Shown here: one piece after another, positions 5,879 through 63,103 of the stretch
How the letters are laid out: each line of letters starts with the position of its first letter
Position numbering within the stretch: position 1 is the first letter of the stretch
NCBI GenBank assembly: GCA_030603885.1
Contig: JAUVWW010000002.1
Span: 21,991 to 85,990 of the forward strand
Source of the DNA: a bacterium
GTDB taxonomy: Bacteria > Patescibacteriota > JABMPQ01 > JAUVWW01
DNA: 64,000 bases
Reading direction: 5' to 3'
Made by a program: the position numbers and the translations under genes
Notes under the pieces: generated by a model
What the model was told of the DNA's origin: nothing
The model's input: only the letters and a program-made list of their open reading frames with translations
Database searches by the model: none

Positions 5879-6184
5879 ATGAAATACAATAAACTTATCC
5901 GAGATAGGATCCCTGAAATCATTAAACAAAAAGGAAAAGTTCCCCTTACTCATATTGCTGATAATGGTGAGTATTGGCAAAAATTGAAAGAAAAACTTAA
6001 AGAAGAAGTTGATGAATTTTTAAAAAATGCTAATGAAGAAGAACTGGCTGATATTCTTGAAGTAATCTATGCCATTTGCCATTTTAAAAAGATTGACAAG
6101 AAAGAATTGGAACTTCAAAGAGTTAAGAAAGCTAAAGAAAGAGGCGGATTTAAAGAAAAAATAATTCTTAATGAAACGAAATAG
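5879..6184 (+). CDS. MazG-like nucleotide pyrophosphohydrolase (small all-alpha NTP-PPase)
   Basis: KLIRDRIPEII...EE.ADILEVIYAI pattern typical of the MazG/HisE-like family. The ORF track start at 5765 overlaps the tRNA; I chose the internal Met at 5879. Confidence 0.5.
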   Translation: MKYNKLIRDRIPEIIKQKGKVPLTHIADNGEYWQKLKEKLKEEVDEFLKNANEEELADILEVIYAICHFKKIDKKELELQRVKKAKERGGFKEKIILNETK

Positions 6185-6269
6185 TTATCTGGCTGCTACG
6201 TTATATTTAAAGAGCAATAATCCATCCCTTGCAGAAAGGGATTTTTAGTCTTATAATTAAAAGAAGCAT

Positions 6270-21156: not shown

Positions 21157-21235
21157 GGGCTTGTAGGCTAATGTTAAACTATCTCTTTCTAAAGAGTATT
21201 GGAGGTTCGAATCCTCCCGAGCCCTCTCATTAAAA
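21157..21235 (+). pseudogene. tRNA-like relic (intact 7-bp acceptor GGGCTTG/CGAGCCC and perfect T-arm GGAGG-TTCGAAT-CCTCC; D and anticodon arms do not fold)
   Basis: Manual folding. T-loop consensus present. I could not define an anticodon. Confidence 0.3.
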
Positions 21236-33766: not shown

Positions 33767-34930
33767 ATGCAATTTAAAATTTTAAAAAAAGATAGGCAAT
33801 CCAAGGCACGCATTGGTCTACTTAAGACTACTCACGGGGAAATCAGAACCCCGTTTTTTATGCCCATTGCTACTAAAGGTTCGATAAAAGGAGTTGCACC
33901 TGGAGAATTGAAAGATCTCGAAGCTCAGATTATTTTAGCCAATACTTATCATTTATATTTGAGGCCTGGGCATAAGCTGATAGAGAAGTTGGGTGGTTTG
34001 CATAAATTTATGAATTGGTCAGGACCTGTCTTAACAGACTCTGGTGGATTTCAAGTTTTTAGTCTGGCTAAGATAAATAAAGTTTTAGATCAAGGGGTTG
34101 ATTTTCAGTGCGACATTGATGGTGGGCACTGTTTTTTATCTCCAGAAAAATCAATTGAGATACAGATGAGCCTAGGTTCTGATATTATGATGGTCTTAGA
34201 TGATGTGGTACCTTATCCCTGTGATCACAGACGGGCTAAAGAAGCAGTAGAAAGAACTACAAATTGGGCTCAAAGAAGCAAGGATTATTGGGCTCACCAT
34301 CCTGCCTCGTCGCTCAGGAAGGAATCCCCCCACCTTCGGTGGGTCCCTCCTTATTCGCACTCGGCAGGAAGAGCTCGCCCTATGCTTTTTGGCATAGTTC
34401 AGGGCTCAACCTACAAAGACCTGCGTCTAAAAAGCGCCAAAGATATAGTTAAATTGAATTTCGATGGTTATGCTATTGGAGGACTGGCCGTAGGTGAACC
34501 TAAAGAAGAAATGTGGGAGGTATTAGATTATTTAATACCAGAGCTACCCGAGGATAGACCAAGATATTTAATGGGTTTAGGCAAGCCGGAGGATATTGTG
34601 GAGGCGGTGAAACGAGGGATTGATATGTTTGACTGTGTGATTCCTACTAGGAATGCTAGGCATGGAGCTTTATTTGTCTGGACAAAAAGTAATGCTATCA
34701 GAGGAAAATTTTACCATATTCTTAAAATTAAGAATCAAGAATTTGCCGAGGATAAAGAATCTATTGATAAAACCTGCGATTGTTATACTTGTCAAAACTT
34801 CTCTCGAGCCTATCTTCGTCATCTGTTCATGACTGAAGATCCTTTAGGCCAAAGATTGGCTACCATACATAATCTAAGATTTTATCTTAGACTAATGGAG
34901 AAAATAAGGAAAGAAATTGAAAAATCTTAA
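33767..34930 (+). CDS. tgt: queuine tRNA-ribosyltransferase
   Basis: TTHGEIRTPFFMPIATKG, LANTYHLYLRPG, DSGGFQV, LFGIVQG, and Zn-site CxCxxC...H near the C-terminus. Contains an in-frame GC-rich insertion (see repeat feature). Confidence 0.85.
   Translation: MQFKILKKDRQSKARIGLLKTTHGEIRTPFFMPIATKGSIKGVAPGELKDLEAQIILANTYHLYLRPGHKLIEKLGGLHKFMNWSGPVLTDSGGFQVFSLAKINKVLDQGVDFQCDIDGGHCFLSPEKSIEIQMSLGSDIMMVLDDVVPYPCDHRRAKEAVERTTNWAQRSKDYWAHHPASSLRKESPHLRWVPPYSHSAGRARPMLFGIVQGSTYKDLRLKSAKDIVKLNFDGYAIGGLAVGEPKEEMWEVLDYLIPELPEDRPRYLMGLGKPEDIVEAVKRGIDMFDCVIPTRNARHGALFVWTKSNAIRGKFYHILKIKNQEFAEDKESIDKTCDCYTCQNFSRAYLRHLFMTEDPLGQRLATIHNLRFYLRLMEKIRKEIEKS
34296..34382. repeat. GC-rich palindromic element inserted in-frame in tgt
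   Basis: Outer stem CCTGCC/GGCAGG and inner CCCACC-TTCG-GTGGG (UUCG tetraloop). About 65% GC against a ~35% background. Confidence 0.5.
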
Positions 34931-50331: not shown

Positions 50332-51063
50332 ATGGCAAAAATAAGATACGAAGAATTGTTAACTTCTGATTTTAAAAAGATCAGAAATAGAAAACCCATT
50401 ATCTTTCTTCCTTTAGGTACTTTAGAATGGCATAGTGATCATTTGCCTTTGGGTATGGATGCCATGGCAGCCCATGAGATATGTCAAAGATTAGCTAAGA
50501 AAATAGGAGGGATGGTTATTCCACCTCTATATTTTGGAACTGACCGGGCTCACAGAGTAAAAGGTAAGATTTTTTATGGCATGGATCGTAGGGCAGGCTA
50601 TCACTTGCCAGGCAGTATTTATTATCTTAAGCCGAATCTTCTTTATAGATTGCTTTTGAATATTTTTTCGCAGATAGAAAGACAGGATTTTAAGCTTTTA
50701 GTAGTCATTACTGGCCACTATGGTCGTAAACAAATAGAAATTTTAGAAAAAGCAGCAAAAAATTATAAAGGTAAGATAAAGATTTATGCTGCCAATATGC
50801 GCCAGTTATTCAAGAAGACACTTAGCCAAGACCAAACTGGTCATGCTGGAACAGGTGAAACCTCGTTGTTTTTGGCTCTAAGACCCGAACTAGTACATAT
50901 GGAGAAATTAAAAAAAGATTTAAGCAAACCTATTGAAATTCTGAGAGATGATCCGCGAGGTAGAGCCTCAAAGAAATTAGGAAAGAAAATATTAAAATCT
51001 ATTATGAATAAGGTTTCGACTGATATATTAAAAATAACTAAAAAATTTCCATGTTCTACGTAA
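50332..51063 (+). CDS. creatininase family amidohydrolase
   Basis: ..IIFLPLGTLEWHSDHLPLGMDA.. ...ITGHYG.. motifs. Confidence 0.55.
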   Translation: MAKIRYEELLTSDFKKIRNRKPIIFLPLGTLEWHSDHLPLGMDAMAAHEICQRLAKKIGGMVIPPLYFGTDRAHRVKGKIFYGMDRRAGYHLPGSIYYLKPNLLYRLLLNIFSQIERQDFKLLVVITGHYGRKQIEILEKAAKNYKGKIKIYAANMRQLFKKTLSQDQTGHAGTGETSLFLALRPELVHMEKLKKDLSKPIEILRDDPRGRASKKLGKKILKSIMNKVSTDILKITKKFPCST

Positions 51064-51881
51064 TCAAAACCACAGGAAAAAGAGAGCCGTTTCAGCCAGA
51101 GAAAATTGAGAGGACTTGTATTAGAGCTGGAGCATCTAAGGCTTTGGCTAAGAAGATTATTCGAGAAGTAGAAAAGAAGGCTTTTGATGGCATTACCACA
51201 AGAGAGATTTTAAAGCTGACTACTTCACTTTTAGAAAAAGAAGCAGTTCACTTGGCAGCTCGATATAATCTAAAGAAAGCTGTTTTTATGCTTGGTCTAG
51301 CCGGCTATGCCTTTGAGGAATTCATGGCTGAGATTTTTAAAGCTCATGGCTATAAAGTCGAAGTTTCTCAGATGATTTCTGGAGCTTGTGTTGATCATGA
51401 AATAGACATTGTAGCTGAAAAAGGAGGAAAGAGATATATGGTGGAATGTAAATATCATTGGCATCCAGGTGTTTTTACTGGACTCAAAGAAGCCATGTAT
51501 ACTCAAGCTAGATTTGAAGATATTCAAGAAGGACATAAGCTAGGCAAATGTCAGAAATTTGATCAACCTTACTTGATAAACAATTTTTTGTTTTCCTCAC
51601 ATGCTATTCAATATGCTCGATGCAAAAAAATGAAACTTTTGGGTTGGGCTTATCCGCCAGATAAGGGCATTGAGATATTAATTGAGGATAAGAGGTTATA
51701 TCCCATAACTATTCTAAGAGGCATAGATACTTATACTCGAAGAAGGCTGACTGTAGCTGGGTTGATGATGTGTAAGGATTTAGTGGAAATGGATCTAGCC
51801 AAGCTTAAGCAGTTTACTGGTCTAGATGTTCCCAGGCTAAAGAAACTAGTTGCTCAGGTAAAGAGGATTTTGCATGATTGA
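51051..51881 (+). CDS. ATP-cone domain + Mrr-like restriction-endonuclease-fold domain protein
   Basis: N-terminal ATP-cone (MFYVIKTTGKREPFQPEKIERTCIRAG). Central Mrr_cat-like segment (FEEFMAEIFKAHGYKVEVSQ...DHEIDIVAEKGGKRYMVECKYH). Confidence 0.5.
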   Translation: MFYVIKTTGKREPFQPEKIERTCIRAGASKALAKKIIREVEKKAFDGITTREILKLTTSLLEKEAVHLAARYNLKKAVFMLGLAGYAFEEFMAEIFKAHGYKVEVSQMISGACVDHEIDIVAEKGGKRYMVECKYHWHPGVFTGLKEAMYTQARFEDIQEGHKLGKCQKFDQPYLINNFLFSSHAIQYARCKKMKLLGWAYPPDKGIEILIEDKRLYPITILRGIDTYTRRRLTVAGLMMCKDLVEMDLAKLKQFTGLDVPRLKKLVAQVKRILHD

Positions 51882-51928: not shown

Positions 51929-52303
51929 ATGAAAAAGGATAATCTTGCTTGGATGGGCCCTGTTGTGGCAGTAGTGGTGTTGTCGTTGGTCTTCATTTTT
52001 TCTGTTCTTGTTGTTTGTCAGAAAATGGAAAAAATGGCTAAGCACCTGGTCTATGTTGTCGAAGTTGAAAAGGGAGATCTTCTTTCAGAAAATGAGGCTC
52101 TAAAAGAACAAGTGGCAGGGCTTAAAGAACTGAAAAAAGAAAAACCAGAAAAGGTAAAGTCATCTAGTCCCTGGGTAACCGTTCTAACCATTTTTTCAAT
52201 TGTTATTGTTGTTTTGCTTATCTATGGTGTGATAGTCACTGATAAAAAACAACAGCTACAAGGGGAAATAAACACGATACGCGAAAAGTACAGAACACCC
52301 TAA
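51929..52303 (+). CDS. hypothetical membrane protein with coiled-coil segment
   Basis: GGAGG RBS. N-terminal and C-terminal TM helices flank a heptad-like LKEQVAGLKELKKEK. Confidence 0.45.
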   Translation: MKKDNLAWMGPVVAVVVLSLVFIFSVLVVCQKMEKMAKHLVYVVEVEKGDLLSENEALKEQVAGLKELKKEKPEKVKSSSPWVTVLTIFSIVIVVLLIYGVIVTDKKQQLQGEINTIREKYRTP

Positions 52304-52321
52304 GATGCAAATTTAACCCTA

Positions 52322-52351
52322 AAAGCCGGTGCTCCACCGGCTTTATTTTTT
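52322..52351 (+). terminator. rho-independent terminator (AAAGCCGGTG/CACCGGCTTT + T-run)
   Basis: Seen in sequence. Confidence 0.65.
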
Positions 52352-52424
52352 GATTACTTATTATAGTCAAAATAAAAAAAGGACTTTCAGAGAAAGCCCC
52401 ATCAAAGAACAAAATCTATTTTTA

Positions 52425-52508
52425 GGGTTAGTAAGGTGTAAAGAGTTTTGAGACGAAAGGAGGTGAAAAGGTGAGATCGCCCCACCTCCTGTTTGACCTT
52501 ACTAACCC
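52425..52508. repeat. long imperfect palindrome / candidate structured RNA (13-bp outer stem GGGTTAGTAAGGT/ACCTTACTAACCC enclosing AGGAGGT/ACCTCCT)
   Basis: Seen in sequence. It lies inside a 430-bp ORF-free, comparatively GC-rich spacer. Confidence 0.4.
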
Positions 52509-52750
52509 TTTTTTCTTTTCCCCAGGAACTTCTTGCCCTCCTTGATTTTCTTCTGGGGACCCCTCAGACAAAACAAAATCTCTCATATTCCCAATATCTT
52601 CTTTAAAAAAGGTCTAAGGGGCCCCTCTATATGAAGGATGTGAAATGAGTTGGGGGTCAAAACCCACCAACGATTTTAGTATATACCCATTAAAAAATAT
52701 GTCAAGTTAAGCTTGCAAAAAAGAGTGTTTTATTTTAGTGCAACTGTAAC

Positions 52751-52779
52751 TTGACAAGAATAAATACTTTTTGTAAGAT
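52751..52779 (+). promoter_or_regulatory. sigma70-like promoter (TTGACA-17-TAAGAT)
   Basis: Read directly. It is followed by an AAGGAGG RBS and ATG at 52811. Confidence 0.45.
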
Positions 52780-52810
52780 GTATTGTTCAGAATTTTATAA
52801 AGGAGGTTTT

Positions 52811-53095
52811 ATGAAAAAGTTGATTTTACCTAGGGAATTACTCTTGGGAGATATAATATATTTGACACTTGCAGATACTATCTGGCTTAGGCAAGGTGAT
52901 AAAGATACCCATTGTCTTGACCATTACTATGAAGAAGATTTTTCTGACTTTGCAAGATTTGTAGCCCAGACCCACAAATTCGGTATAAAGGAAATAGAGA
53001 CTCCCGGGGCAGAGGAAGCTTATCAGTTTGTGCAAATGGAGGAAGAAGAGGACGAAACTAAGGCTAAGGCAGAGGCTGAAGCTACTTTAGTATAA
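52811..53095 (+). CDS. hypothetical protein (94 aa, acidic C-terminus)
   Basis: Strong RBS. The ORF track start at 52751 coincides with the promoter -35 box, so I chose the internal Met. Confidence 0.45.
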   Translation: MKKLILPRELLLGDIIYLTLADTIWLRQGDKDTHCLDHYYEEDFSDFARFVAQTHKFGIKEIETPGAEEAYQFVQMEEEEDETKAKAEAEATLV

Positions 53096-53222
53096 AAACG
53101 GATTATAGGTTTAGGAGTCACATACCAAGTGGCTCCTTTTTAAATCCCACCAATACATGGTGAGGGTTGGAATGAGACACCTTAAAGTGTTATCTTAAAA
53201 TAAGAGCTGTGGGTAACTTTCC

Positions 53223-53251
53223 TTGACTTGTATATACAAATTGCATACAAT
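53223..53251 (+). promoter_or_regulatory. sigma70-like promoter (TTGACT-17-TACAAT)
   Basis: Read directly. The ORF-track start at 53223 is the TTG of the -35 box. Confidence 0.45.
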
Positions 53252-53267
53252 TATATGCAAAAGATAT

Positions 53268-53843
53268 ATGAAAATCCTCTTGTCTAAAAATAAAGCCTTA
53301 CTTCTTAGACTATTTTTTACTCATCCCGGACGAGCTTATTATATTCAGGAAATTGGTCGTATTTTAAAGAAAAAACCTGGTGTTTTTCAGCGTGATTTAA
53401 ATAACCTAGCCAAAGAGGGAATTCTTGAGAGTTTTTATAAAGTCAATGCTCGATATTTTAAAATTAATAAAGAATATCCTCTTTATAAACAATTGAAAGA
53501 GATTATTTCTAAAACAATAGGGATAGAGGGAAGTCTAAAAGAGGCACTTTCTAAGATAGAAGGTATTGAGAGTGCTTTTATTTTTGGATCCTATGCTAAA
53601 GGAGAAGAAAGAGCCATCTCAGATATTGATCTATTTATTATTGGTCATCCAGACGAAAATAAAGTTATTGAAAGTATAAGTAAACTAGAAAAGAAACTGG
53701 ATCGGGAAATCAATTATCATATTTATTCTGAAAAAGATCTAGAAAAAAAGATAAAAGAAAAAGATTCTTTTATAAAAAGAGTGCTTAAGGGACCAAAGAT
53801 AATGTTAATTGGAAAAGAAGATGAATTATCAAGATTTAATTGA
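53268..53843 (+). CDS. winged-HTH + minimal nucleotidyltransferase (MNT) domain protein
   Basis: N-terminal wHTH-like LLLRLFFTHPGRAYYIQEIGRIL. Pol-beta-type NTase motif GSYAKGEERAISDIDLFII. Confidence 0.6.
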   Translation: MKILLSKNKALLLRLFFTHPGRAYYIQEIGRILKKKPGVFQRDLNNLAKEGILESFYKVNARYFKINKEYPLYKQLKEIISKTIGIEGSLKEALSKIEGIESAFIFGSYAKGEERAISDIDLFIIGHPDENKVIESISKLEKKLDREINYHIYSEKDLEKKIKEKDSFIKRVLKGPKIMLIGKEDELSRFN

Positions 53844-53894
53844 GAAAAAATTCAGAAAGTTTTAGATAAAGTGAATAATTTATTAAAATGAATT

Positions 53895-54836
53895 TTGTAT
53901 AGGTTTGTTTCTATGAATACTAAAATAAATACAATCTATAAATCAATAATAAGTAATAAATTTAAAACAAAAATAATTAGAAAAAGGAATAGTAAACATG
54001 TGTTTGTTAATGCTGACTGCGAAGAGGTAATGAAGACTATTCCAGATAATAGTATTGATTTGATTATTACTGATCCACCCTATAATAAGTCTTTAGACTA
54101 TGGAAAGAGATTTAACGATCGGAAAACTAAAGAAGAATACTATAATTGGCTGAGGGCTAAATTAGTTGAGATACCGAGGATACTCAGCCCACGTGGAAGT
54201 CTTTATTTAATAGGTTACCCAGAAAAAAATGCTCGTCTTCTTCCATATTTAGAAGATGAACTAAAGTTGAAGTTTTGCAGATGGATTACTTGGCACTATC
54301 CTACTAATATTGGTCATTCAAGAAGAAATTTTACCCGTAGTCAAAGGTCTATACTTTTTTTTAGTAAAACTAATCGATATATTTTTAATCGGAAAAATTT
54401 AATCCAATCTTATAAAAATCCTACCGCAACAGTGATTCGCAAAAGATTAGCTAAGGGATATAGAGGAAGAACATCCTATGACTTATTACGATTTCTTGAT
54501 CTCATAGAACTACAGAAGGGATTAATTAATGTATTAGATATTAATCTTTTAAAAAATAATTCGAGGGACCGACTAAGAAATTTAAATAAAAAATTCCACC
54601 CACTTTCTAAAAAGGAATTAAAGAAAAAGGATCATCCTTGTCAATTACCACCAGCTTTAATAGAAATATTAATTAAGGTTAGTAGTAATAAAAATTATAT
54701 TGTCCTAGACCCGTTTGCAGGAACTTTTACTACTTCTGCTGCTGCCGAAAGATTAAAAAGAAATTCAGTAGGCGTTGAAATAAATAAGAAATTTTTAAAT
54801 TTCGGATTAAAAAGATTAAAAAATGAGAAAGTATAA
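53895..54836 (+). CDS. site-specific DNA methyltransferase, beta-class (N6-adenine or N4-cytosine)
   Basis: Motif IV DLIITDPPYN precedes motif I VLDPFAGTFTT (the beta-class order). A DHPCQLPPAL target-recognition/catalytic segment is present. Confidence 0.8.
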   Translation: MYRFVSMNTKINTIYKSIISNKFKTKIIRKRNSKHVFVNADCEEVMKTIPDNSIDLIITDPPYNKSLDYGKRFNDRKTKEEYYNWLRAKLVEIPRILSPRGSLYLIGYPEKNARLLPYLEDELKLKFCRWITWHYPTNIGHSRRNFTRSQRSILFFSKTNRYIFNRKNLIQSYKNPTATVIRKRLAKGYRGRTSYDLLRFLDLIELQKGLINVLDINLLKNNSRDRLRNLNKKFHPLSKKELKKKDHPCQLPPALIEILIKVSSNKNYIVLDPFAGTFTTSAAAERLKRNSVGVEINKKFLNFGLKRLKNEKV

Positions 54837-56562
54837 AATATCAGACCTAAAAGAAATATTTGAATTTGCTGGATTTTCAACATTTCACATAGAATTTCTT
54901 CTTTTTGACATTGTCAATAAGGAAAAACTATCCTATAAGGGCAAAAGAAAGAAAAAAGTGGCGACGGAGGGAGAATTAGATTTATTTGCATATTATGGGG
55001 ACGTAATATGGTTAATTGAATGGACAACAGAAAAAGGATTTAATACAAAAGACTTTGATAATTTTAAAACTAAAATAGAAAAATTAAATAGTGACAGAGA
55101 ACTACTTCGAAAATTAATTAATAAGCTAGAAGGAAAATTTAAAACAAAAATAGGATTAAACGCAGAAGAAGTAAAAGTGATTGGTCTTTATGTTAACCCC
55201 ACTTTTAATGAGGTTCAGGCGGAAACTCTTAAGGCAAGATTATTATCTACCCATAAGGATTTGATATATTTATGGGACTGTGAAACATTTGAATATTTTA
55301 AAATTGTATGTACTACCATTAGGGAATTTTCTAAATATGAACTTTTTACTCATTTTAATATTCTTCCAGAACTTGTATTTAATAAAATAGAACTAGAAGG
55401 AAGAAGGGGAGCTTCTCCTTACGAGGCTATTAAAATAAAAAAAGGTGTTTTTGGGTATCCCACCTATACCTTTAAAATATCACCTTTAATGCTTTTAGAA
55501 AGATGTTATGTGCTTAGGAATGAGAGTTGGAGAAGCGATAGTTTTCAAAGAATGGTTATTCCGCAAAAATTAGCCAATATAAGAGAGTATATAATCAAAA
55601 CTAAGAATACGTCGTTTGCAAACAACATTATTATTAGCCCTTCACCGGAAATTAATCCAAATGAGATAATTGAGGAAACAAAGAATGGAAAAATTCTAAT
55701 TCACTTACCATTTAGATTTAGTAGTTTTTGCATAATTGATGGACAACATAGATTATTAGCTTTTACTCAAGATTTTTATAGTAATTATAATAAAGAAGAA
55801 AAAGAAGAAGACAAAATATTAACAAGGCTGGCGCAAAAATCTGAAATTATAGTAACTCTTGTTAAGTTTTCTGGAAATAGAGATGAAATTTTACGGAAAC
55901 AAGCTATTCTTTTTAAGGATATAAACTCTACACAAACAAGAGTCAAAACCGATTTTATTTACAATTTACAAGAAATTATCGAACCCCTTCATTCAGAGTC
56001 TATTGCGAATAAGACAACAAAATATTTGAATAATTTAGAAGATGGAGTATTAAAAGATAAATTTGAGATAAAGTCCTTACCTTCTTATAAAGGAAGAATA
56101 AAAAGATCCTCTGTTGTTAGATGGGGGTTAAGTGAATTAGTAAATACAGAAAATACATTCTTCTTTTCAATTTATAAAAAGAAAGTGAGAAACTCTAAAG
56201 ATATTCCTATTTATGTTAAATTTTGTGGTGATAAATTAAATAAATATTTCTTTTGTATAAAAGAAGTATTTGAAAAAAAATACAAAAAAGAAATATGGGA
56301 TAATTGGAGAAAAACTGATTTCATGCTGTTATCTTCATCTAGTATTGTTGGTTTTCTCAGATTATACAGGCATTTTATTAAAACCAAATTAGTAAATGAT
56401 AAAAGTAAAATAAAAAGATATTTGAAAGCTATTAAAGTAAACTTCAAGAAAGATAAATATATCTATACTTCCAGCCAATGGGCAAAACTTGAAGAAAAAA
56501 TGTTTTGGAACATAAGGAAAAAATACTCTGATTTTGGAGATGAAGATTTAATAAAAAGATAA
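54823..56562 (+). CDS. DGQHR-domain (DndB-like, ParB/Srx-fold) protein with ~250-aa N-terminal extension
   Basis: FCIIDGQHRLLAF motif preceded by FQRMVIPQKLANIREYI (DndB-like core). The start overlaps the methyltransferase stop by 14 nt. Confidence 0.7.
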   Translation: MRKYKISDLKEIFEFAGFSTFHIEFLLFDIVNKEKLSYKGKRKKKVATEGELDLFAYYGDVIWLIEWTTEKGFNTKDFDNFKTKIEKLNSDRELLRKLINKLEGKFKTKIGLNAEEVKVIGLYVNPTFNEVQAETLKARLLSTHKDLIYLWDCETFEYFKIVCTTIREFSKYELFTHFNILPELVFNKIELEGRRGASPYEAIKIKKGVFGYPTYTFKISPLMLLERCYVLRNESWRSDSFQRMVIPQKLANIREYIIKTKNTSFANNIIISPSPEINPNEIIEETKNGKILIHLPFRFSSFCIIDGQHRLLAFTQDFYSNYNKEEKEEDKILTRLAQKSEIIVTLVKFSGNRDEILRKQAILFKDINSTQTRVKTDFIYNLQEIIEPLHSESIANKTTKYLNNLEDGVLKDKFEIKSLPSYKGRIKRSSVVRWGLSELVNTENTFFFSIYKKKVRNSKDIPIYVKFCGDKLNKYFFCIKEVFEKKYKKEIWDNWRKTDFMLLSSSSIVGFLRLYRHFIKTKLVNDKSKIKRYLKAIKVNFKKDKYIYTSSQWAKLEEKMFWNIRKKYSDFGDEDLIKR

Positions 56563-56598
56563 GGTCATGAAATAGTTCTAAATTGATCTAACAAAAGA

Positions 56599-56620
56599 CT
56601 AGAAAATTTAATTGAGTAAA
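56599..56620 (+). promoter_or_regulatory. recurrent intergenic motif CTAGAAAATTTAATTGAG (copy A)
   Basis: One of six or more near-identical copies lying 10-60 nt upstream of consecutive genes between 56.6 and 60.4 kb. Confidence 0.5.
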
Positions 56621-56628
56621 TAAAATTT

Positions 56629-57606
56629 ATGGCAAAAATAATTCAAGAGCAAAAAATTTATGAGTCTTTTGAATATGATAGCGAATCGGAATTTGAGAAA
56701 GATATTATAAGATATGCAAAACATATATTTGGTAGTAATGCAGTTTATTTCGACGTCAAAAAAAGAATTAGTAAAGGAAGTGTCATTACTATACCCGATG
56801 GTTATTTAATTGATTTTTCTTTTGCGCATGATCCGAAGTTATACATTATAGAAAACGAGTTAGTAATACACGATCCCTATAAACATATCGGGCAGCAATT
56901 ATTAAGATTCGCAGTTTCTTATAGAAGTGCCGGTCACGAAATTAAAAATTTTTTACTGGAAAAAATTTCAGAGGATGGAGATAAAAAGAAAAATTTAGAT
57001 AGATACCTACAACAGTCTAAATATAGAAACATCGATGACTTATTAGAAGATATTATTTTTAATAAGCCTATTGGAATTATAGTGATAATTGACGAAATCA
57101 CCGATGACCTTTCCAATGTTCTTAGTCAATTAACTGTAAAAACTGATATTATTGAATTTAAAAAATATATTAGCCAAGGTGATCCTTTGGATAGTATTTA
57201 CCAATTTACCCCCTTTCAACAAGACGTTAGAGCTCCAGGCAAAAAAATTGATTTAGAAAAACTCGATACGATAGTAGTTCCTGCCAATGAAGAAGGCTTT
57301 AAAAATGTGTTTTTAGGCAAGAATTGCTGGTATGCTATAAGAATTTCAAGTGTGATGTTAGACAAAATTAAGTATATAGCGGGTTATCAAACAGCCCCTG
57401 TCTCTGCTATTACTCATGTTGCTGAAGTAGAAAAAATAGAAAAATACAAAAATACAGATAAATATATAGTTTACTTTAGGGATAAAGCAAAAAAGATTAA
57501 ACCGATAAAACTTGTTTCGAAAAGTCTAATAAAAGCACCTCAGTCAGCAAGATATGCTAATTATGAACAGTTGATAAAAGCAAAGAATCTTGATGAGGTT
57601 TTTTAG
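56629..57606 (+). CDS. hypothetical protein (325 aa), part of the MTase-DGQHR locus
   Basis: Complete ORF preceded by the recurrent CTAGAAAATTTAATTGAG motif. IPDGYLIDF...IIENELV hints weakly at a nuclease-like core. Confidence 0.5.
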   Translation: MAKIIQEQKIYESFEYDSESEFEKDIIRYAKHIFGSNAVYFDVKKRISKGSVITIPDGYLIDFSFAHDPKLYIIENELVIHDPYKHIGQQLLRFAVSYRSAGHEIKNFLLEKISEDGDKKKNLDRYLQQSKYRNIDDLLEDIIFNKPIGIIVIIDEITDDLSNVLSQLTVKTDIIEFKKYISQGDPLDSIYQFTPFQQDVRAPGKKIDLEKLDTIVVPANEEGFKNVFLGKNCWYAIRISSVMLDKIKYIAGYQTAPVSAITHVAEVEKIEKYKNTDKYIVYFRDKAKKIKPIKLVSKSLIKAPQSARYANYEQLIKAKNLDEVF

Positions 57607-57657
57607 TGTCAAACGGAATTAAGGCCGAATATGAATAAAGAAAAACAACTGCAAAAA

Positions 57658-57680
57658 CTAGAAAATTTAATTGAGAAAAA
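57658..57680 (+). promoter_or_regulatory. recurrent motif CTAGAAAATTTAATTGAGAAAAA (copy B)
   Basis: As copy A. It lies inside a 17-codon mini-ORF MNKEKQLQKLENLIEKN. Confidence 0.5.
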
Positions 57681-57717
57681 TTAATAGATAAAATTTAGAG
57701 ACAATTGCTTAATAATT

Positions 57718-58593
57718 ATGGCTTTATTAAATAGATTACATCTTAATGCTTTAGCTTCTGTAGAGATAGAAAATGGCAATAGATTCGACTCAATTGCCAC
57801 TGGTTTTCTTATTGGATTTATATTAAAGAATAATAAAGATCCTAAGAAAAGATTATACAATATTTTCTTAATCACCAATAGACATGTTTTTAGTGGTCGG
57901 CAGAAGATATTTTTACGATTTAATAAAAAAGATGGTAAAGCTGTCAGATTCCCGGTCAACTTGATAGTTAATAAGCAGACAACATGGCTTGCACATAAAA
58001 ATAAGAAAGTAGATCTAGCTTTATTAACAATTTCCCCACAAGTTTTGAATACTCATAATGTTGAATGGCTATTTTTCAATGAAGAGATGCTTGCTTATCC
58101 TAAAAAATTTCAAGAGATTGGAATTGAATTAGGTGACGAGGTATTCATTTTGGGATTTCCTCTTGGCCTTTCGGGTAAGCTACAAAATTTTCCTGTTGTA
58201 AGATCAGGAATTATTGCCAGGTGCGACAGAGAAATCTTGAGGGATAAAAAAGCATTTGTCATCGATGCCTCTATTTTTCCTGGTAATAGTGGGGGACCCA
58301 TCCTGCTTAAGCCAGAACTGGCAAGTTTAAAAGGAACTAAAGCAGTAAATTCAATATATCTGCTCGGAGTTGTGTCTGGATATTTACCATATAAAGAGAT
58401 TCTTTACAGTCATCAATCTAAACCACCATCTTATGCTGGTGTTTCCATTGAAAACTCTGGCTTAGCTTTTGCTGTTTCTATGAATTTTGCTAAGCAGATT
58501 TATAACAAATGGATAGCAATCAAAAAGCAACTTGCTAAAGTTCAAAAGGGTACTGAAAGAATAGTTCAGAAACAAGTGCAAACATTAGATTAA
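57718..58593 (+). CDS. trypsin-like (chymotrypsin-fold) serine peptidase domain protein
   Basis: Catalytic-triad candidates TNRHVF (His), KKVDLALL (Asp) and FPGNSGGPIL (Ser, in the GDSGGP-like box). Confidence 0.6.
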   Translation: MALLNRLHLNALASVEIENGNRFDSIATGFLIGFILKNNKDPKKRLYNIFLITNRHVFSGRQKIFLRFNKKDGKAVRFPVNLIVNKQTTWLAHKNKKVDLALLTISPQVLNTHNVEWLFFNEEMLAYPKKFQEIGIELGDEVFILGFPLGLSGKLQNFPVVRSGIIARCDREILRDKKAFVIDASIFPGNSGGPILLKPELASLKGTKAVNSIYLLGVVSGYLPYKEILYSHQSKPPSYAGVSIENSGLAFAVSMNFAKQIYNKWIAIKKQLAKVQKGTERIVQKQVQTLD

Positions 58594-58679
58594 TGAAATC
58601 TAATCGCTCAACAAAAAATCTCCACTTTAATTCGAGAATCTTTTAAACTTCACAAAAATCAAGAGAATTAATTGAGGAA

Positions 58680-58705
58680 GCGAAGAGGGAAGTAGAAAAT
58701 TTAAT
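58680..58705 (+). promoter_or_regulatory. recurrent motif GCGAAGAGGGAAGTAGAAAATTTAAT (copy C, extended 5' box shared with copy E)
   Basis: 26-nt identity with 59560-59585. Confidence 0.5.
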
Positions 58706-58785
58706 CCTGCACCACATAGGGTGTAGAGCAGTTTGAGAAAGGAGGCAGAAGAAAATTCAAAATTAAAAAGTAAAAATGTAAAATT

Positions 58786-59013
58786 ATGTGTAAAGAAAAG
58801 ACTCAAGAAGAATTAAAGAAAGAAGTTAATAAAATTGTTAATGAACCAGACAGAGCCAGAGCAGAGCTTACATATCAACAAATTTTAGCTATTAGAAAAT
58901 TCAACAAACAGACTTTGCGTTATTCTAGAATACTGATTTGGCTTACAGGAATTATGACTGTAGCTGTATTAATTCAGATTGTAATAATGATGGTTTTATA
59001 CAAATGTGAGTAG
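58786..59013 (+). CDS. hypothetical small membrane protein (75 aa, C-terminal TM)
   Basis: ORF with TM helix ILIWLTGIMTVAVLIQIVIMMVL. Confidence 0.4.
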   Translation: MCKEKTQEELKKEVNKIVNEPDRARAELTYQQILAIRKFNKQTLRYSRILIWLTGIMTVAVLIQIVIMMVLYKCE

Positions 59014-59033
59014 AAAATTTAATTGAGAAAAAT
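59010..59033 (+). promoter_or_regulatory. recurrent motif GTAGAAAATTTAATTGAGAAAAA (copy D; the stop codon of the upstream ORF is the TAG inside the motif)
   Basis: As above. Confidence 0.5.
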
Positions 59034-59068
59034 TACTAAAATTTAGCCAGAGGTTAAGAGAAGTTAAT

Positions 59069-59473
59069 ATGAACAATAAAGATTTTGAAATTATAGATAT
59101 AAGGAATAAAATTATTTTTTCTCATAGAAAATTACTATTAACCATTTTGACTATTACTAATACAATAGCCCTTATAGGCGTTCCTAATATTAAAGAATCC
59201 TGGATAAGATATGAAATTCTTTTAAGGTTCACTTTTATTCTTTTCGTTATAGATACCATTATTGTTATTTGGTATTTATTAATGCTAATCAAGAAAGATT
59301 TAGAATATACAGATGAAATGAGAAATGCTTTAAGGCTAGGAAAATTGCAAGAGAAATACAGTGAAATAGATAAAAAACAAGAAAGAAATGAACATTATAC
59401 AGAAATAATTCTCTCTGTATTTTCCCTGGCAATGGTTTTACTTATTATTGCAATTTTTCCAAAATGTTATTAA
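59069..59473 (+). CDS. hypothetical membrane protein (134 aa, 3 TM)
   Basis: ORF and hydrophobicity. Confidence 0.4.
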   Translation: MNNKDFEIIDIRNKIIFSHRKLLLTILTITNTIALIGVPNIKESWIRYEILLRFTFILFVIDTIIVIWYLLMLIKKDLEYTDEMRNALRLGKLQEKYSEIDKKQERNEHYTEIILSVFSLAMVLLIIAIFPKCY

Positions 59474-59559
59474 AGAATGTTTAGTTTGAGCTAAAATCGC
59501 TAATTTAATTCGCCAATCCCACCATGCTCGCAAAAAAAGCAAAGGGATTATTGGAAGAG

Positions 59560-59593
59560 GCGAAGAGGGAAGTAGAAAATTTAATTGAGAAAT
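59560..59593 (+). promoter_or_regulatory. recurrent motif, extended copy E
   Basis: As above. Confidence 0.5.
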
Positions 59594-59635
59594 AATAATC
59601 TCTAAAATTTATAATCAAAAAATAATTTAAATATT

Positions 59636-59797
59636 ATGTCTAATACAAAAAAGAGAAAAAAGAAAGAACCAGCACCTTGGAAGCCTGTTAATCTAGAAGA
59701 ATTTAACAAGAATACCAAGGTTATTTCAGAAATGTTTAAGTCGGATCCTAAAAGACTGAACGAGTCTCAGAATAATAATGACGATAATACTGAATAA
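59636..59797 (+). CDS. hypothetical small protein (53 aa; basic N-terminus, acidic C-terminus)
   Basis: Open frame found by hand, preceded by the motif GTAGAAAATTTAATTGAG and TAAAATTTA. Not in the ORF track (<60 aa). Confidence 0.3.
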   Translation: MSNTKKRKKKEPAPWKPVNLEEFNKNTKVISEMFKSDPKRLNESQNNNDDNTE

Positions 59798-59802
59798 TTA
59801 AT

Positions 59803-60363
59803 ATGTCTCAAGCTATTTCTATTGAGAAAAACTGGATTATATTTGATACATGCACTGTTTCTAAAATATCAATTATTGGTAATGCTACTTCAATAATAGA
59901 ATCTATCTCAAATCAAATTGGTCCATTTACAGCAGTTATTACCCCATTGGTTCGTTTTGAATTTTTGAGAAAAGCAAATTCTAAGAGTGAGTTCGAGAAA
60001 TTTCGAGATTACCTAACCAAAACTTACACAGAAATAGATCTAGTTTCAAAAGAAGATCGTTATGATATCCATCGTTTATCTTCTGAACTCGCGTGTGTTT
60101 GTAGGTATGCAATCCCCAATCATTATAAACATATTGACATGACAGACTTCATACATGGTGGATTATTACGAAGATATCCTAGAAATCTTTTTTTATTAAC
60201 GTTTGATATAAATGATTTTCCTGATCCAATATTTGAACTATTACATCACGAAAGTATCAAGATAAATAAAAATTTAGAAATATGGGCATTATATAAATTT
60301 AACAAAGGAGGATTTGATAATTTATACAATAAATTCAAAAAGAGAAGTAGAAAATTTAATTGA
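59803..60363 (+). CDS. hypothetical protein (186 aa; N-terminal IIFDTCTV could be PIN-like)
   Basis: ORF. Weak motif resemblance only. Confidence 0.4.
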   Translation: MSQAISIEKNWIIFDTCTVSKISIIGNATSIIESISNQIGPFTAVITPLVRFEFLRKANSKSEFEKFRDYLTKTYTEIDLVSKEDRYDIHRLSSELACVCRYAIPNHYKHIDMTDFIHGGLLRRYPRNLFLLTFDINDFPDPIFELLHHESIKINKNLEIWALYKFNKGGFDNLYNKFKKRSRKFN

Positions 60364-60369
60364 GAAAAA
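60347..60369 (+). promoter_or_regulatory. recurrent motif GTAGAAAATTTAATTGAGAAAAAA (copy F; encodes the C-terminal ..SRKFN* of the upstream ORF)
   Basis: As above. Confidence 0.5.
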
Positions 60370-60909
60370 ATGACAGAAGCTGAATTTACTAAAAAGGTTT
60401 TAAATTTCTTTCAGAAAAAACTTAAAAGGAGTGGTCTCCCTATTAAAGTTGAGAGCTGCAACTATATTCTCCGCGATTTTACATTCTCTAGAGATAAAAA
60501 GGGTAAATGGCAGCTTCTTTGTGGAACCCAGGAGCAAGATATAATCTTCTATAAGGATATTATTTCAAGAAAGGATTTTCTCGGGGAGATTGGGAAAACA
60601 AGTGGTGCTGGACTTAGAAAGGATTTAATTATTCCACTCGCATTGTGCGAGCTTAAGGTCGGGACTTTAAATACTCATGGTATGATCGTGGCTGACAAGA
60701 TTGCCCAGGATGTAAAATCTATTTTTCCCCATTGCATTTCTCTTTTTATTGTTTTATCAGATATAAAAAGAAAACTTGGACCAGAGACAGTTCTAAGACA
60801 AGCAAAGAGCTTTAACGGAGTTTATCTTGAGTGGGAGAAGGAAAAGGAGGCAATCTGGAAAGAGTTAAGAAAACATTTTGAATATTGTAAAAAGAGAAAA
60901 GTTATTTAA
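60370..60909 (+). CDS. hypothetical protein (179 aa; possible PD-(D/E)xK-like D..ELK core)
   Basis: ORF. QDIIFYKD ... LALCELKVG is suggestive, not diagnostic. Confidence 0.4.
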   Translation: MTEAEFTKKVLNFFQKKLKRSGLPIKVESCNYILRDFTFSRDKKGKWQLLCGTQEQDIIFYKDIISRKDFLGEIGKTSGAGLRKDLIIPLALCELKVGTLNTHGMIVADKIAQDVKSIFPHCISLFIVLSDIKRKLGPETVLRQAKSFNGVYLEWEKEKEAIWKELRKHFEYCKKRKVI

Positions 60910-61020
60910 ACTTTAAAAGATAGTAAATAAAATCATCTTTAAAAGAGACTGTCCCCTTTTTCTCTTAAACAAATTAAAACAATCAATTTTAGCTAAGGCA
61001 TTTAAAGGAGAATTAGTAAA

Positions 61021-61533
61021 ATGAAAAATTTTACTCAACAACAAATTTTAGAATTAGCTAAAAAATATTCTCACGAAACTAAAGATGAGCCGATAGAGAG
61101 AGAAATTAAAAAATGGTTAAAAAGTCATAGATACTTAGATAAGGATAGATTTATTAGATTGTGTTTGTGGAAATCTGCTAGACAGCGAAAAAATTACGAA
61201 AAAAATGATGATTTAACAATAAGAGAGATAACAAGATTTTCGTTCTTGACTAAAAGTGAAAGGGCAAGGATAGAATCATTACAGATTTTAGATGGTGTTT
61301 CTTATCCTGTGGCCTCGACTATTTTACATTTTGCTTTTCCAGACAAATATCCAATTATGGACTTTAGAGTAATTTGGTCGTTGGGATGGAAGCAACCAAA
61401 ATATTATAATTTTGATTTTTGGCAGAAATACGTTAATAAATTAAGAAAACTTGCAAAAAAATACAAAGTTTCTTTAAGAGAATTAGATAAAGCCCTTTGG
61501 TATTATTCAAAAGAGAATCAAAAAAATAATTAA
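61021..61533 (+). CDS. hypothetical protein (170 aa; possible helix-hairpin-helix segment)
   Basis: ORF. LQILDGVSYPVASTILHFAFPDKYPIMD resembles an HhH motif. Confidence 0.4.
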   Translation: MKNFTQQQILELAKKYSHETKDEPIEREIKKWLKSHRYLDKDRFIRLCLWKSARQRKNYEKNDDLTIREITRFSFLTKSERARIESLQILDGVSYPVASTILHFAFPDKYPIMDFRVIWSLGWKQPKYYNFDFWQKYVNKLRKLAKKYKVSLRELDKALWYYSKENQKNN

Positions 61534-61584
61534 AATTTAACCCTAAGTTGAGAGATAACCCACGCCCACCATCCGAAAGAAAAT

Positions 61585-62133
61585 TTGGCCAAACCGAAAA
61601 TCAAGATCAAACAAACTAACCCCATGAAATACATTGCCATCAGCGGAAGCTGGAGAAAAATGAATAGTCAGTTAGAAAAAGATGTCAGAGATCATGTTCG
61701 AGAAATTATTTCTCGTGGAGATGGTATTGTTTCTGGCGGAGCTTTGAATGTTGATTATATTGCTACTGATGAAGCATTAAAACTAGATCCATCTGCCAAA
61801 AGAATAAAAATCTTTCTTCCAGCCACTTTAGAAATTTTTTCTGCTCATTATCGAAAACGGGCTCGAGAAGGAGTGATTACCAAAGAACAAGCTGAAAGCC
61901 TTATTGCTCAACTAAATAAAGTAGGTCAATTAAATCCCTCCTCGATTATTGAGAATAAAAATAATAAAGTTTTAGACAAAGAGACATATTATGAAAGAAA
62001 TTCAGCTGTTATAGAAGCAGCCGATGAATTAATAGCCTTTCATGTTAATAAAAGCCTTGGTACTAAAGATGCCATTGAAAAGGCTCATAAAAAAGGCATT
62101 CCAGTAAAAACTTTTAGTTATACTATTGAATAA
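61585..62133 (+). CDS. hypothetical Rossmann-like protein (possible SLOG/DprA-LOG-like)
   Basis: YIAISGSW ... GDGIVSGGALNVDYIATDEAL ... IAFHVNKSLGTKDAIEKAHKKGIPV pattern. Weak. Confidence 0.35.
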   Translation: MAKPKIKIKQTNPMKYIAISGSWRKMNSQLEKDVRDHVREIISRGDGIVSGGALNVDYIATDEALKLDPSAKRIKIFLPATLEIFSAHYRKRAREGVITKEQAESLIAQLNKVGQLNPSSIIENKNNKVLDKETYYERNSAVIEAADELIAFHVNKSLGTKDAIEKAHKKGIPVKTFSYTIE

Positions 62134-62183
62134 GCAAGATTTAGCCTGAGGTTGAGGAAAATTTAATAATTAATTAAAAAAAC

Positions 62184-62381
62184 ATGGAAGAGCAAAAAGA
62201 AGAAAATTTAATTAAGAAAAGAAGTAAATTAGTTATTTTTGGCCTTATTCTTATTGGTATTATTTTTATTATGCTTTGCTTAAAAGCTTTAAGTAATGAA
62301 GACGATTGGATTTGCCAAGATGGCCAGTGGGTAAAACATGGCTATCCCAGCGCCCCAAAACCCACCACCCCTTGTAAATAG
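62184..62381 (+). CDS. hypothetical small membrane protein (65 aa)
   Basis: ORF with one TM helix and a C-terminal Cys pair. Confidence 0.35.
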   Translation: MEEQKEENLIKKRSKLVIFGLILIGIIFIMLCLKALSNEDDWICQDGQWVKHGYPSAPKPTTPCK

Positions 62382-62479
62382 ATTTAACTACAGTTGGGTT
62401 ATTCTTAAATTCTTGAGAATATTGGAATAGTTAGAAACTTTAGATAAAGAGATTATAGCTTACCTAATGAAATTAAATT

Positions 62480-63103
62480 ATGAAAGACAAAAGCACATTA
62501 GGTTGCTTAATTGGGCTAATTATTATTGTTTTAATCATAGCTGGCTTAATTGGGCTTTATGTTTGGAAAGGACCACCAGCTAGTTTAACAGCTAAACAAG
62601 CTTACCAAAAAGCCTTAGAATATATTAAAACTCAAGATGAAACTTTTTTAGCCTCTTTAGCTGAAGGCTATATACCAGAAAGTGTTGGTCGAGTTTCTGA
62701 TCTTGAAAAAACAGGAAAAGGAATAGGCTGGTATCTTTGTTTTTATTCAAAAAAAGAAGATAAGTGGATTAAACTTTCTACAAGCTGGAAAGGAGAAATA
62801 GAAGAGACAGATACTTCTTTATATTCCTGTACTAGCAAAGATAAAATAGATTCTGAAAAATGGAAGATTGACAGTGAGCAGGCAATTGACATCGCCAAAA
62901 ACAAGGCTGAAGAAGAAGGCAAAAAAAGATTTGTTCCTATTAAGATAGAACTTTATCAATCAGAAGAAAAGCCAACTTGGTCGGTTATATTTTTCCCTCC
63001 CAATGTAGGCAAAGACACAGTTGGTTTTAGTGTCACTATTAATGGAGAAACAGGGGAGGTTATAAGGACAGGGGAGCCTGGCTACCATTATTTAGTTATT
63101 TGA
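62480..63103 (+). CDS. membrane-anchored protein with PepSY-like C-terminal domain
   Basis: N-terminal TM helix. C-terminal ...SEQAIDIAKNKAEEEG...FSVTINGETGEVI resembles a PepSY domain. Confidence 0.4.
   Translation: MKDKSTLGCLIGLIIIVLIIAGLIGLYVWKGPPASLTAKQAYQKALEYIKTQDETFLASLAEGYIPESVGRVSDLEKTGKGIGWYLCFYSKKEDKWIKLSTSWKGEIEETDTSLYSCTSKDKIDSEKWKIDSEQAIDIAKNKAEEEGKKRFVPIKIELYQSEEKPTWSVIFFPPNVGKDTVGFSVTINGETGEVIRTGEPGYHYLVI

Follow-up and report, generated by a model that had tools for sequence, protein, structure and literature searches.

In DndB, GmrSD, SspE and NsnA, a homologous ParB-fold domain acts as NTPase or as sensor, with control over DNA binding or over a nuclease linked to it (PMC12065111, PMC4619093). 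Specifically, the ParB/DUF262 NTPase of GmrSD and SspE reads the modification state of DNA and activates the nuclease fused to it (PMC12065111, PMC4619093). DndB binds DNA in a sequence-specific manner (PMC4507180), and its modulation by ATP has been reported (Xia et al. 2019, as cited in PMC10853773). DpdB belongs to the ParB-like proteins and is an ATPase (PMC10164549, PMC12839542), and in vitro binding of both ATP and GTP was seen for a DndB-like protein (bioRxiv 10.1101/2025.10.10.680097). In addition, two surveys (Makarova 2013, PMC3632139; Anantharaman 2013, PMC3710099) reported that ParB-like domains of the COG1479/DUF262/DGQHR kind are often fused to HNH, PD-(D/E)xK-like or HEPN nucleases and linked to restriction–modification (R-M), and that operons of a ParB nuclease and a methylase exist. 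Here we analyze a 64,000-nucleotide (nt) stretch of a Patescibacteriota genome (assembly GCA_030603885.1, contig JAUVWW010000002.1, positions 21,991 to 85,990 of the forward strand; hereafter the window), in which the gene for a beta-class DNA methyltransferase (MTase) overlaps the gene for a 579-residue protein with a DGQHR domain. We consider it fairly probable that the two genes form a self-contained, horizontally mobile R-M cassette in which the 579-aa protein is the endonuclease.

The general idea of a link between ParB-like domains, nucleases and R-M is not new. The survey remarks are one-line entries in tables or text, in which the family, its strict two-gene architecture, its conserved residues and its distribution are not defined. 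The original prediction, made from the DNA sequence, knew of no described system composed of an MTase and an extended DGQHR protein, and in the searchable, incomplete part of the literature we likewise found no paper that describes, defines or tests such a pair. No library names the 579-aa protein an endonuclease, and its RefSeq label is ‘DGQHR domain-containing protein’.

The original prediction had assigned the pair to a single five-gene locus of the modification/defence type, together with a winged helix-turn-helix (wHTH) nucleotidyltransferase (NTase), a 325-aa protein and a trypsin-like protease. An open reading frame (ORF) check recovers all five genes on the plus strand at 53223–58593 with the coordinates first given, and the MTase stop (54836) and the DGQHR start (54823) overlap by 14 nt, as predicted. 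Hidden Markov model (HMM) and PADLOC matches bear out the domain calls for the wHTH-NTase, the beta-class MTase, the extended DGQHR protein and the Trypsin_2 protease. The MTase carries DPPY at residues 60–63, before DPFAGT at residues 272–277, and P61, P62, Y63, D272, P273, F274 and G276 are invariant in nine cognate MTases (alignment A2). The catalytic (DPPY/SPPY) and S-adenosylmethionine-binding motifs are therefore intact, as membership of an R-M system requires.

The pairing of the two genes is conserved across species. A scan of one genome per species returned at least 337 relatives of the DGQHR protein, from which 80 loci of bacterial and archaeal species were kept, and the six-frame ORFs of these loci were searched with HMMs built from our own alignments. 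The detectable DGQHR-protein homologs (n = 76) come from both bacteria and archaea and are nearly all 546–634 aa long. The MTase gene lies directly upstream on the same strand in 72 of the 80 loci and is adjacent in another orientation in three; in four more the DGQHR gene is truncated by the contig end and the position of the MTase is not readable. The two genes are thus adjacent in 75 of 76 informative species loci, which answers the co-localization test raised with the original prediction in favor of a coupled unit. Furthermore, in 52 of 70 loci the two genes overlap or the DGQHR start follows the MTase stop by no more than 20 nt, start calls being approximate.

The two proteins also diverge together. 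Close relatives of the DGQHR protein (46–55% identity) adjoin MTases that are 54–57% identical to the window MTase, while distant relatives (24–27% identity) adjoin MTases that are 26–33% identical and have SPPY in place of DPPY. In eight independent contexts (six from metagenomes or metagenome-assembled genomes (MAGs) and two more), which include Bathyarchaeia, Rhodopseudomonas, Bacteroidota and several metagenomes, the sole common neighbor is an abutting N6_N4 MTase, convergent in one of them. The other neighbors vary and comprise integrases, a relaxase, a recombinase, a transposase, Type I R-M, HEPN and Fic genes, or plain housekeeping genes. No third conserved gene, such as a controller protein or a helicase, was found, the largest family of flanking ORFs occurring in 4 of 88 related loci. 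Among plasmids there are six distant matches, and a Phyllobacterium plasmid has the same MTase + DGQHR layout. Carriers that exist in culture include Alistipes timonensis DSM 25383 (L028), Salegentibacter salinarum DSM 23400 (L039), Brevundimonas nasdae JCM 11415 (L043), Butyricicoccus pullicaecorum (L055) and Belliella marina (L056). The MTase and the DGQHR protein are a real coupled unit, a strict two-gene mobile cassette.

Phage collections gave one weak match in 50,697 phage records and 12 matches in IMG/VR, mostly at contig ends; given this scarcity, we rejected a phage origin of the DGQHR gene, which is not a typical phage gene. Three MAG loci (L037, L049 and L053) have a split or truncated DGQHR ORF (370–433 aa) beside an intact MTase gene, a pattern that could reflect either decay of the endonuclease with retention of the MTase or assembly error. 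One distant 769-aa DGQHR relative, encoded on Novosphingobium aromaticivorans plasmid pNL1 (locus L101, 3683–5992, H6), has another architecture and no adjacent MTase, its neighbors being ATP-binding and radical SAM genes. It is probably the Saro_3948 ParB-HEPN fusion listed in PMC3710099.

It is very improbable that all five genes constitute one novel multi-gene modification/defence system. The genes do share a strand, close spacing and a single island of low guanine + cytosine (GC) content. However, none of the 88 related loci has a homolog of the NTase, the 325-aa protein or the protease within ~6 kb of the pair, apart from one marginal NTase match (E 1e-3) 4 kb from the pair in one locus (L003). 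In addition, the family of the 325-aa protein, with more than 1500 clusters, occurs elsewhere without an MTase or DGQHR gene nearby, and PADLOC assigns the NTase and the protease to separate candidate systems. Because only the MTase and DGQHR genes recur together, and no other flanking gene recurs with them, the five-gene locus is not one system: the coupled unit within it stands, and its extension to the other three genes does not.

The 579-aa protein is composed of three domains in an AlphaFold2 (AF2) model, computed from a 24-sequence alignment with a predicted local distance difference test score (pLDDT) of 87 and a predicted template-modeling score of 0.84. In this model a nuclease domain of restriction-endonuclease (REase) fold is followed by a ParB-fold DGQHR domain and then by a C-terminal domain that is mostly helical and has high pLDDT. 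Structural matches of the model recur with Foldseek, at weak E-values, and no solved structure matches the protein over its full length. The generic DGQHR model TIGR03187 scores 63.9 bits (cutoff 58.85) in an alignment that reaches residue 468, and ~200 residues precede the point at which the DndB and DpdB models begin. A phmmer search with the N-terminal 190 residues against 1.84 billion representatives gave six matches, namely five family members (546–600 aa) and one 286-aa protein, and no other architecture.

Residue conservation, computed over 79 family members, marks all three domains. In the nuclease domain, position 51 is always D or E, D53 and E66 are 100% conserved, T68 is 96%, K84 is 92%, and H80 is 89% (N in the clade of the window). 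D53 opens strand 54–58 and E66 closes strand 61–67 of the AF2 model, the canonical positions of a PD...(D/E)xK motif. In the ParB-type domain, R232, Q242-R243, N267, D306-G-Q-H-R310, F364, I367 and N368 are all 100% conserved, and in the C-terminal domain Y464, W492 and F541 are conserved. By analogy with DndB (PMC4507180), we infer that the C-terminal domain may recognize DNA. An active HEPN RNase in this domain, as suggested for DndB (PMC3632139), was considered and rejected, the conserved columns having no Rx4-6H motif.

These structures bear on two statements of the original prediction. It had seen no recognizable restriction endonuclease, whereas a PD-(D/E)xK fold is predicted for two of the proteins, in the N-terminal domain of the DGQHR protein and in the first half of the 325-aa protein. 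It had also held a Type II R-M assignment unfit for want of an endonuclease, an objection undercut by an REase-fold extension with invariant acidic residues; R-M is now the best fit.

An assignment to the Dnd or Dpd systems does not hold. The protein scores 16.5 bits against the DndB equivalog TIGR03233 (cutoff 328), 23.9 against the Pfam DndB model PF14072 (cutoff 29.1) and 43.4 against the DpdB equivalog NF041060 (cutoff 300), so that only the generic DGQHR model passes. None of dndC, dndD and dndE is present among the window ORFs scanned, and no flanking family recurs in the related loci. The original prediction had reported no transglycosylase-like (TGT-like) partner in the window. A Tgt gene does exist at 33767–34930, at a distance of 20 kb and among aminoacyl-tRNA synthetase genes, and is the sole TGT of the window; it is the housekeeping tRNA-guanine transglycosylase (TIGR00430, 498 bits, cutoff 307) and gave no DpdA match, so the absence of a DpdA partner stands. 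Since equivalog models and linkage both fail, we reject a Dnd or Dpd identity, and the exclusion of Dnd, Ssp and Dpd made from the sequence alone is upheld.

Several observations weigh against an endonuclease role. The canonical lysine of the (D/E)xK motif is a threonine in 96% of members, and nuclease activity would hinge on K84 of the next helix, a plausible candidate for a relocated lysine. PDB searches with phmmer, using the protein, and with the family profile returned no match even at E 10; PADLOC matches of the protein are to DpdB and DndB, both weak, and to no endonuclease model. A comparison by hhalign of the N-terminal sub-alignment with the FokI cleavage domain gave no signal, and for this reason the mapping onto FokI D450/D467/K469 is by secondary-structure position only. 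Furthermore, ParB-fold proteins can also serve as regulators (DndB) or modification helpers (DpdB), and in one genome the DGQHR gene has no adjacent MTase. In this genome, Sabulibacter ruber (locus L075, gene at 5899–7638), a beta-class MTase with a BglII-like endonuclease as its partner is encoded 4.5 kb off, next to SNF2 helicase and NOV_C genes; the distant MTase may serve both nucleases, or the DGQHR copy may be inactive.

On a rival reading, the DGQHR protein would be an NTP-dependent regulator or helper of the MTase, either a DndB-like repressor/controller or a DpdB-like ATPase that gives the modification enzyme access to DNA, with a nuclease fold used for DNA binding or nicking only. 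DndB controls transcription of its own operon in a sequence-specific manner (PMC4507180), the DpdB ATPase is required for DpdA-mediated base insertion (PMC10164549, PMC12839542), and the missing canonical lysine is in line with such a role. However, the invariance of D53 and E66 between clades at ~25% identity speaks for catalysis. MTases of the beta class need no helper, and one of 579 aa would be without precedent. The DGQHR gene is almost never found without the MTase, whereas MTases of the same class abound without a DGQHR gene, an asymmetry expected of a toxic endonuclease. With scores far under the DndB and DpdB equivalog cutoffs in addition, we regard a regulator or helper as improbable.

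A two-gene R-M cassette thus remains the reading that we favor. The case for a restriction role is genetic and architectural: the gene is obligately paired with that of an MTase in an operon and diverges with it, the cassette is mobile and found in defence islands, and the predicted nuclease fold has two invariant acidic residues, all of which together point to an endonuclease. From this we infer how cleavage, protection by methylation, DNA recognition and gating by nucleoside triphosphate (NTP) could fit together. The MTase would mark host DNA at its own target sequence, as N6-methyladenine or N4-methylcytosine, and so protect the host; N6-methyladenine would be expected in the DPPY clade, and N4-methylcytosine is a possibility in the SPPY clade. 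The DndB-like module, composed of the ParB-fold DGQHR domain and the helical C-terminal domain, would locate unmethylated targets, and the N-terminal FokI/BspD6I-like PD-(D/E)xK domain would cut DNA through D53, E66 and, probably, the relocated K84. NTP binding or hydrolysis at the DGQHR site would gate the engagement of two protomers, and hence dimerization and activation of the nuclease. FokI-type cleavage domains have to dimerize to make a double-strand break.

A more far-reaching version of this scheme, which we put forward tentatively and consider doubtful, is a new R-M class in which a ParB-type NTP clamp, formed as NTP drives the DGQHR domains together as in ParB-CTP, would dimerize two FokI-like domains on unmethylated DNA. 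Such an enzyme would be NTP-gated without a helicase or AAA+ motor and would be distinct from Types I–IV, GmrSD and SspE. The invariant ParB-type NTP-site motifs suggest that, unlike Type II proper, the enzyme may need more than Mg2+ for cleavage, and in that case it would not count as a classical Type II enzyme.

An arrangement like SspABCD-SspE would assign the MTase the same role as writer of the host mark, while the DGQHR ParB-type NTPase would sense the mark instead of its absence, and the nuclease would nick or cut an unmarked invader or act abortively. The closest functional analogs that join a ParB/DUF262 NTPase to a nuclease, SspE and GmrSD, are indeed modification sensors (PMC12065111, PMC4619093), and pairing with a modification enzyme fits this scheme as well as it fits classical R-M; no sequence feature separates the two. 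However, in SspE and GmrSD the nuclease is C-terminal and of the HNH/DUF1524 type and the NTPase domain is DUF262 with DGQQR, whereas the present protein has its REase fold at the N terminus and a DGQHR domain. The tight, overlapping operon with the MTase gene before the nuclease gene is, moreover, the classical R-M layout. We consider mark sensing unlikely, and retain the R-M reading of the pair.

Table 1. Features of the locus and domains of the DGQHR protein (window coordinates).
Feature	Position	Strand	Basis
wHTH + MNT-type NTase	53223..53843	+	Polbeta 7e-12, NTP_transf_2 1e-10, PADLOC PDC-M05A 3e-54
Beta-class (N6A/N4C) DNA MTase	53895..54836	+	Pfam N6_N4_Mtase 1e-45, PADLOC MTase_II 1e-49
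DGQHR protein, 579 aa, three domains, predicted restriction endonuclease	54823..56562	+	ORF; TIGR03187; AF2 model
N-terminal PD-(D/E)xK REase-fold domain (predicted), residues 1-190	54823..55392	+	motif (E/D)51-x-D53 ... E66-x-T68 ... K84
ParB/Srx-fold DGQHR domain, residues ~200-375, putative NTP-binding switch	55420..55947	+	
C-terminal helical domain, residues ~376-579, candidate DNA-recognition module	55948..56562	+	partly within DGQHR/DndB model
325-aa protein, predicted PD-(D/E)xK nuclease fold + PUA-like domain	56629..57606	+	predicted structure
Trypsin-like serine protease	57718..58593	+	Trypsin_2 5e-12, PADLOC PDC-S45 4e-33, phrog_7688 7e-31
Low-GC island, all five genes + further small unknown genes	53200..62800	.	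GC

The NTase, the 325-aa gene and the protease share the low-GC defence island with the pair but are independent of it. The candidate system PDC-M05 consists of an NTase and a HEPN protein (PMC12988326); neither neighbor of the NTase matches M05B or HEPN, and the composition of PDC-M05 is therefore not present here. The protease matches PDC-S45 at 4.3e-33, residues 15–223 aligning with profile positions 27–238 of 293, which suffices for this single-gene system; the defence role of PDC-S45 is itself a candidate one. The 325-aa protein gave no sequence-family match in Pfam, NCBIfam or PADLOC, as the original prediction of an unknown protein implied, and its family is ~58% identical with a constant length of ~326 aa. 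Its predicted structure shows an N-terminal PD-(D/E)xK nuclease and a C-terminal PUA-like (ASCH/YTH/EVE-like) reader domain, and the invariant motif PDGYLxD...ExNEL has Glu in place of the canonical Lys. The model suggests that it may be an uncharacterized modification-dependent restriction enzyme.

The five genes form the start of a low-GC island, in which GC is 0.25–0.33 over ~53.2–62.8 kb, against 0.36–0.39 to either side. The remainder of the window is bacterial housekeeping sequence, with RpoD, DnaG, transfer-messenger RNA and aminoacyl-tRNA synthetase genes. The low GC agrees with the defence-island character first proposed, and with a putative R-M pair, an NTase and a protease the region has the typical content of a defence island. 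Within the island (53200–62800) no tRNA, integrase or flanking repeat was identified. The promoter-like element assigned to each gene, and the shared upstream motif, found no statistical support: sigma-70-like matches in 52300–59200 number 29, against 32.7 ± 6.1 in shuffled sequences, and are not enriched.

Two of the gene starts probably require revision. The mechanical starts of the NTase and the MTase are TTG codons (53223 and 53895), with alternative ATG codons at 53268 and 53913, respectively. The products of the TTG starts are not in the protein collection as exact sequences, and the products of the other three genes are. Both TTG starts probably lie too far upstream, and the real start of the MTase is probably ATG 53913.

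Further features lie within the island and around it. The island is rich in small genes without a family match; the ORF at 59803–60363 is weakly VapC/PIN-like, and the 182-aa protein encoded at 61585–62133 is DprA/Smf-like, with weak PsyrA and ShosA matches. There are two strong terminator-like hairpins on the plus strand, at 52322–52344 and 53113–53137; the latter lies between a 114-aa ORF (52751–53095) and the NTase gene, at the drop in GC, and is consistent with an island boundary. Directly upstream of the island, the protein encoded at 51051–51881 contains an ATP-cone, an Mrr_cat restriction-endonuclease domain and an AF1548-like C-terminal domain, and the start of its gene overlaps the end of a creatininase gene. 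The nuclease domain of the DGQHR protein, too, has AF1548 as its best structural match. At 21157–21226, ARAGORN calls a tRNA-like gene with an undetermined ‘anticodon’ of 2 bases.

If the endonuclease assignment is correct, annotation misses an R-M system present in several hundred or more species of bacteria and archaea. At present RefSeq records an orphan ‘site-specific DNA-methyltransferase’ beside a DGQHR protein, and PADLOC an MTase with weak DpdB/DndB matches; methylome motifs credited to such ‘orphan’ MTases would have to be reinterpreted as R-M motifs. The 579-aa protein would represent a new endonuclease architecture, in which a DndB-like ParB-fold module drives a cleavage domain of REase fold, and the DGQHR module would be reusable, operating with methylation as it does with phosphorothioation and 7-deazaguanine. 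Such an enzyme would also be relevant to ParB-fold NTP switches outside chromosome segregation, and could be a source of new sequence-specific or NTP-controllable nucleases.

Compared with known systems, the 579-aa protein resembles DndB and DpdB in its DGQHR domain, with QR, DGQHR and FxxxN motifs, in the helical domain that follows, and in the adjacency of its gene to that of a DNA-modification enzyme. It differs from them in ~200 extra N-terminal residues, which form the predicted nuclease-fold domain, and in its partner, which is a methyltransferase instead of DndCDE or DpdA. With GmrSD, SspE and NsnA of Menshen it shares the union of an NTPase-type ParB fold, a helical middle part and a DNase domain, here a predicted one, in one polypeptide, and residence in defence islands; these systems provide a precedent for NTP-controlled activation of a nuclease (PMC12065111, PMC4619093). 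However, their domains are a DGQQR/DUF262 module and a C-terminal HNH (DUF1524) nuclease, and library scans of the DGQHR protein gave no DUF262, DUF1524 or HNH match. Moreover, they occur either without a cognate methyltransferase (Type IV) or with Ssp phosphorothioation genes, whereas here the MTase is obligatory. A GmrSD or SspE identity was rejected on these grounds: the type of nuclease, its orientation, the ParB subfamily and the obligatory MTase.

In contrast to FokI-type enzymes, in which the cleavage domain is C-terminal with a D...DxK motif, the predicted cleavage domain here is N-terminal, with a D...ExT motif and a conserved K on the next helix, and sequence similarity between the two is not detectable by PDB phmmer, profile or hhalign comparison. 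A ParB-fold DGQHR module with invariant NTP-site motifs makes up the remainder of the protein and is seen in none of the characterized Type II enzymes. In its layout the cassette is nevertheless closest to Type IIS enzymes with a FokI-like cleavage domain: as in FokI and R.BspD6I/Nt.BspD6I, a separate upstream beta-class MTase gene overlaps a single gene for the endonuclease, here a predicted one, in a mobile cassette of two genes.

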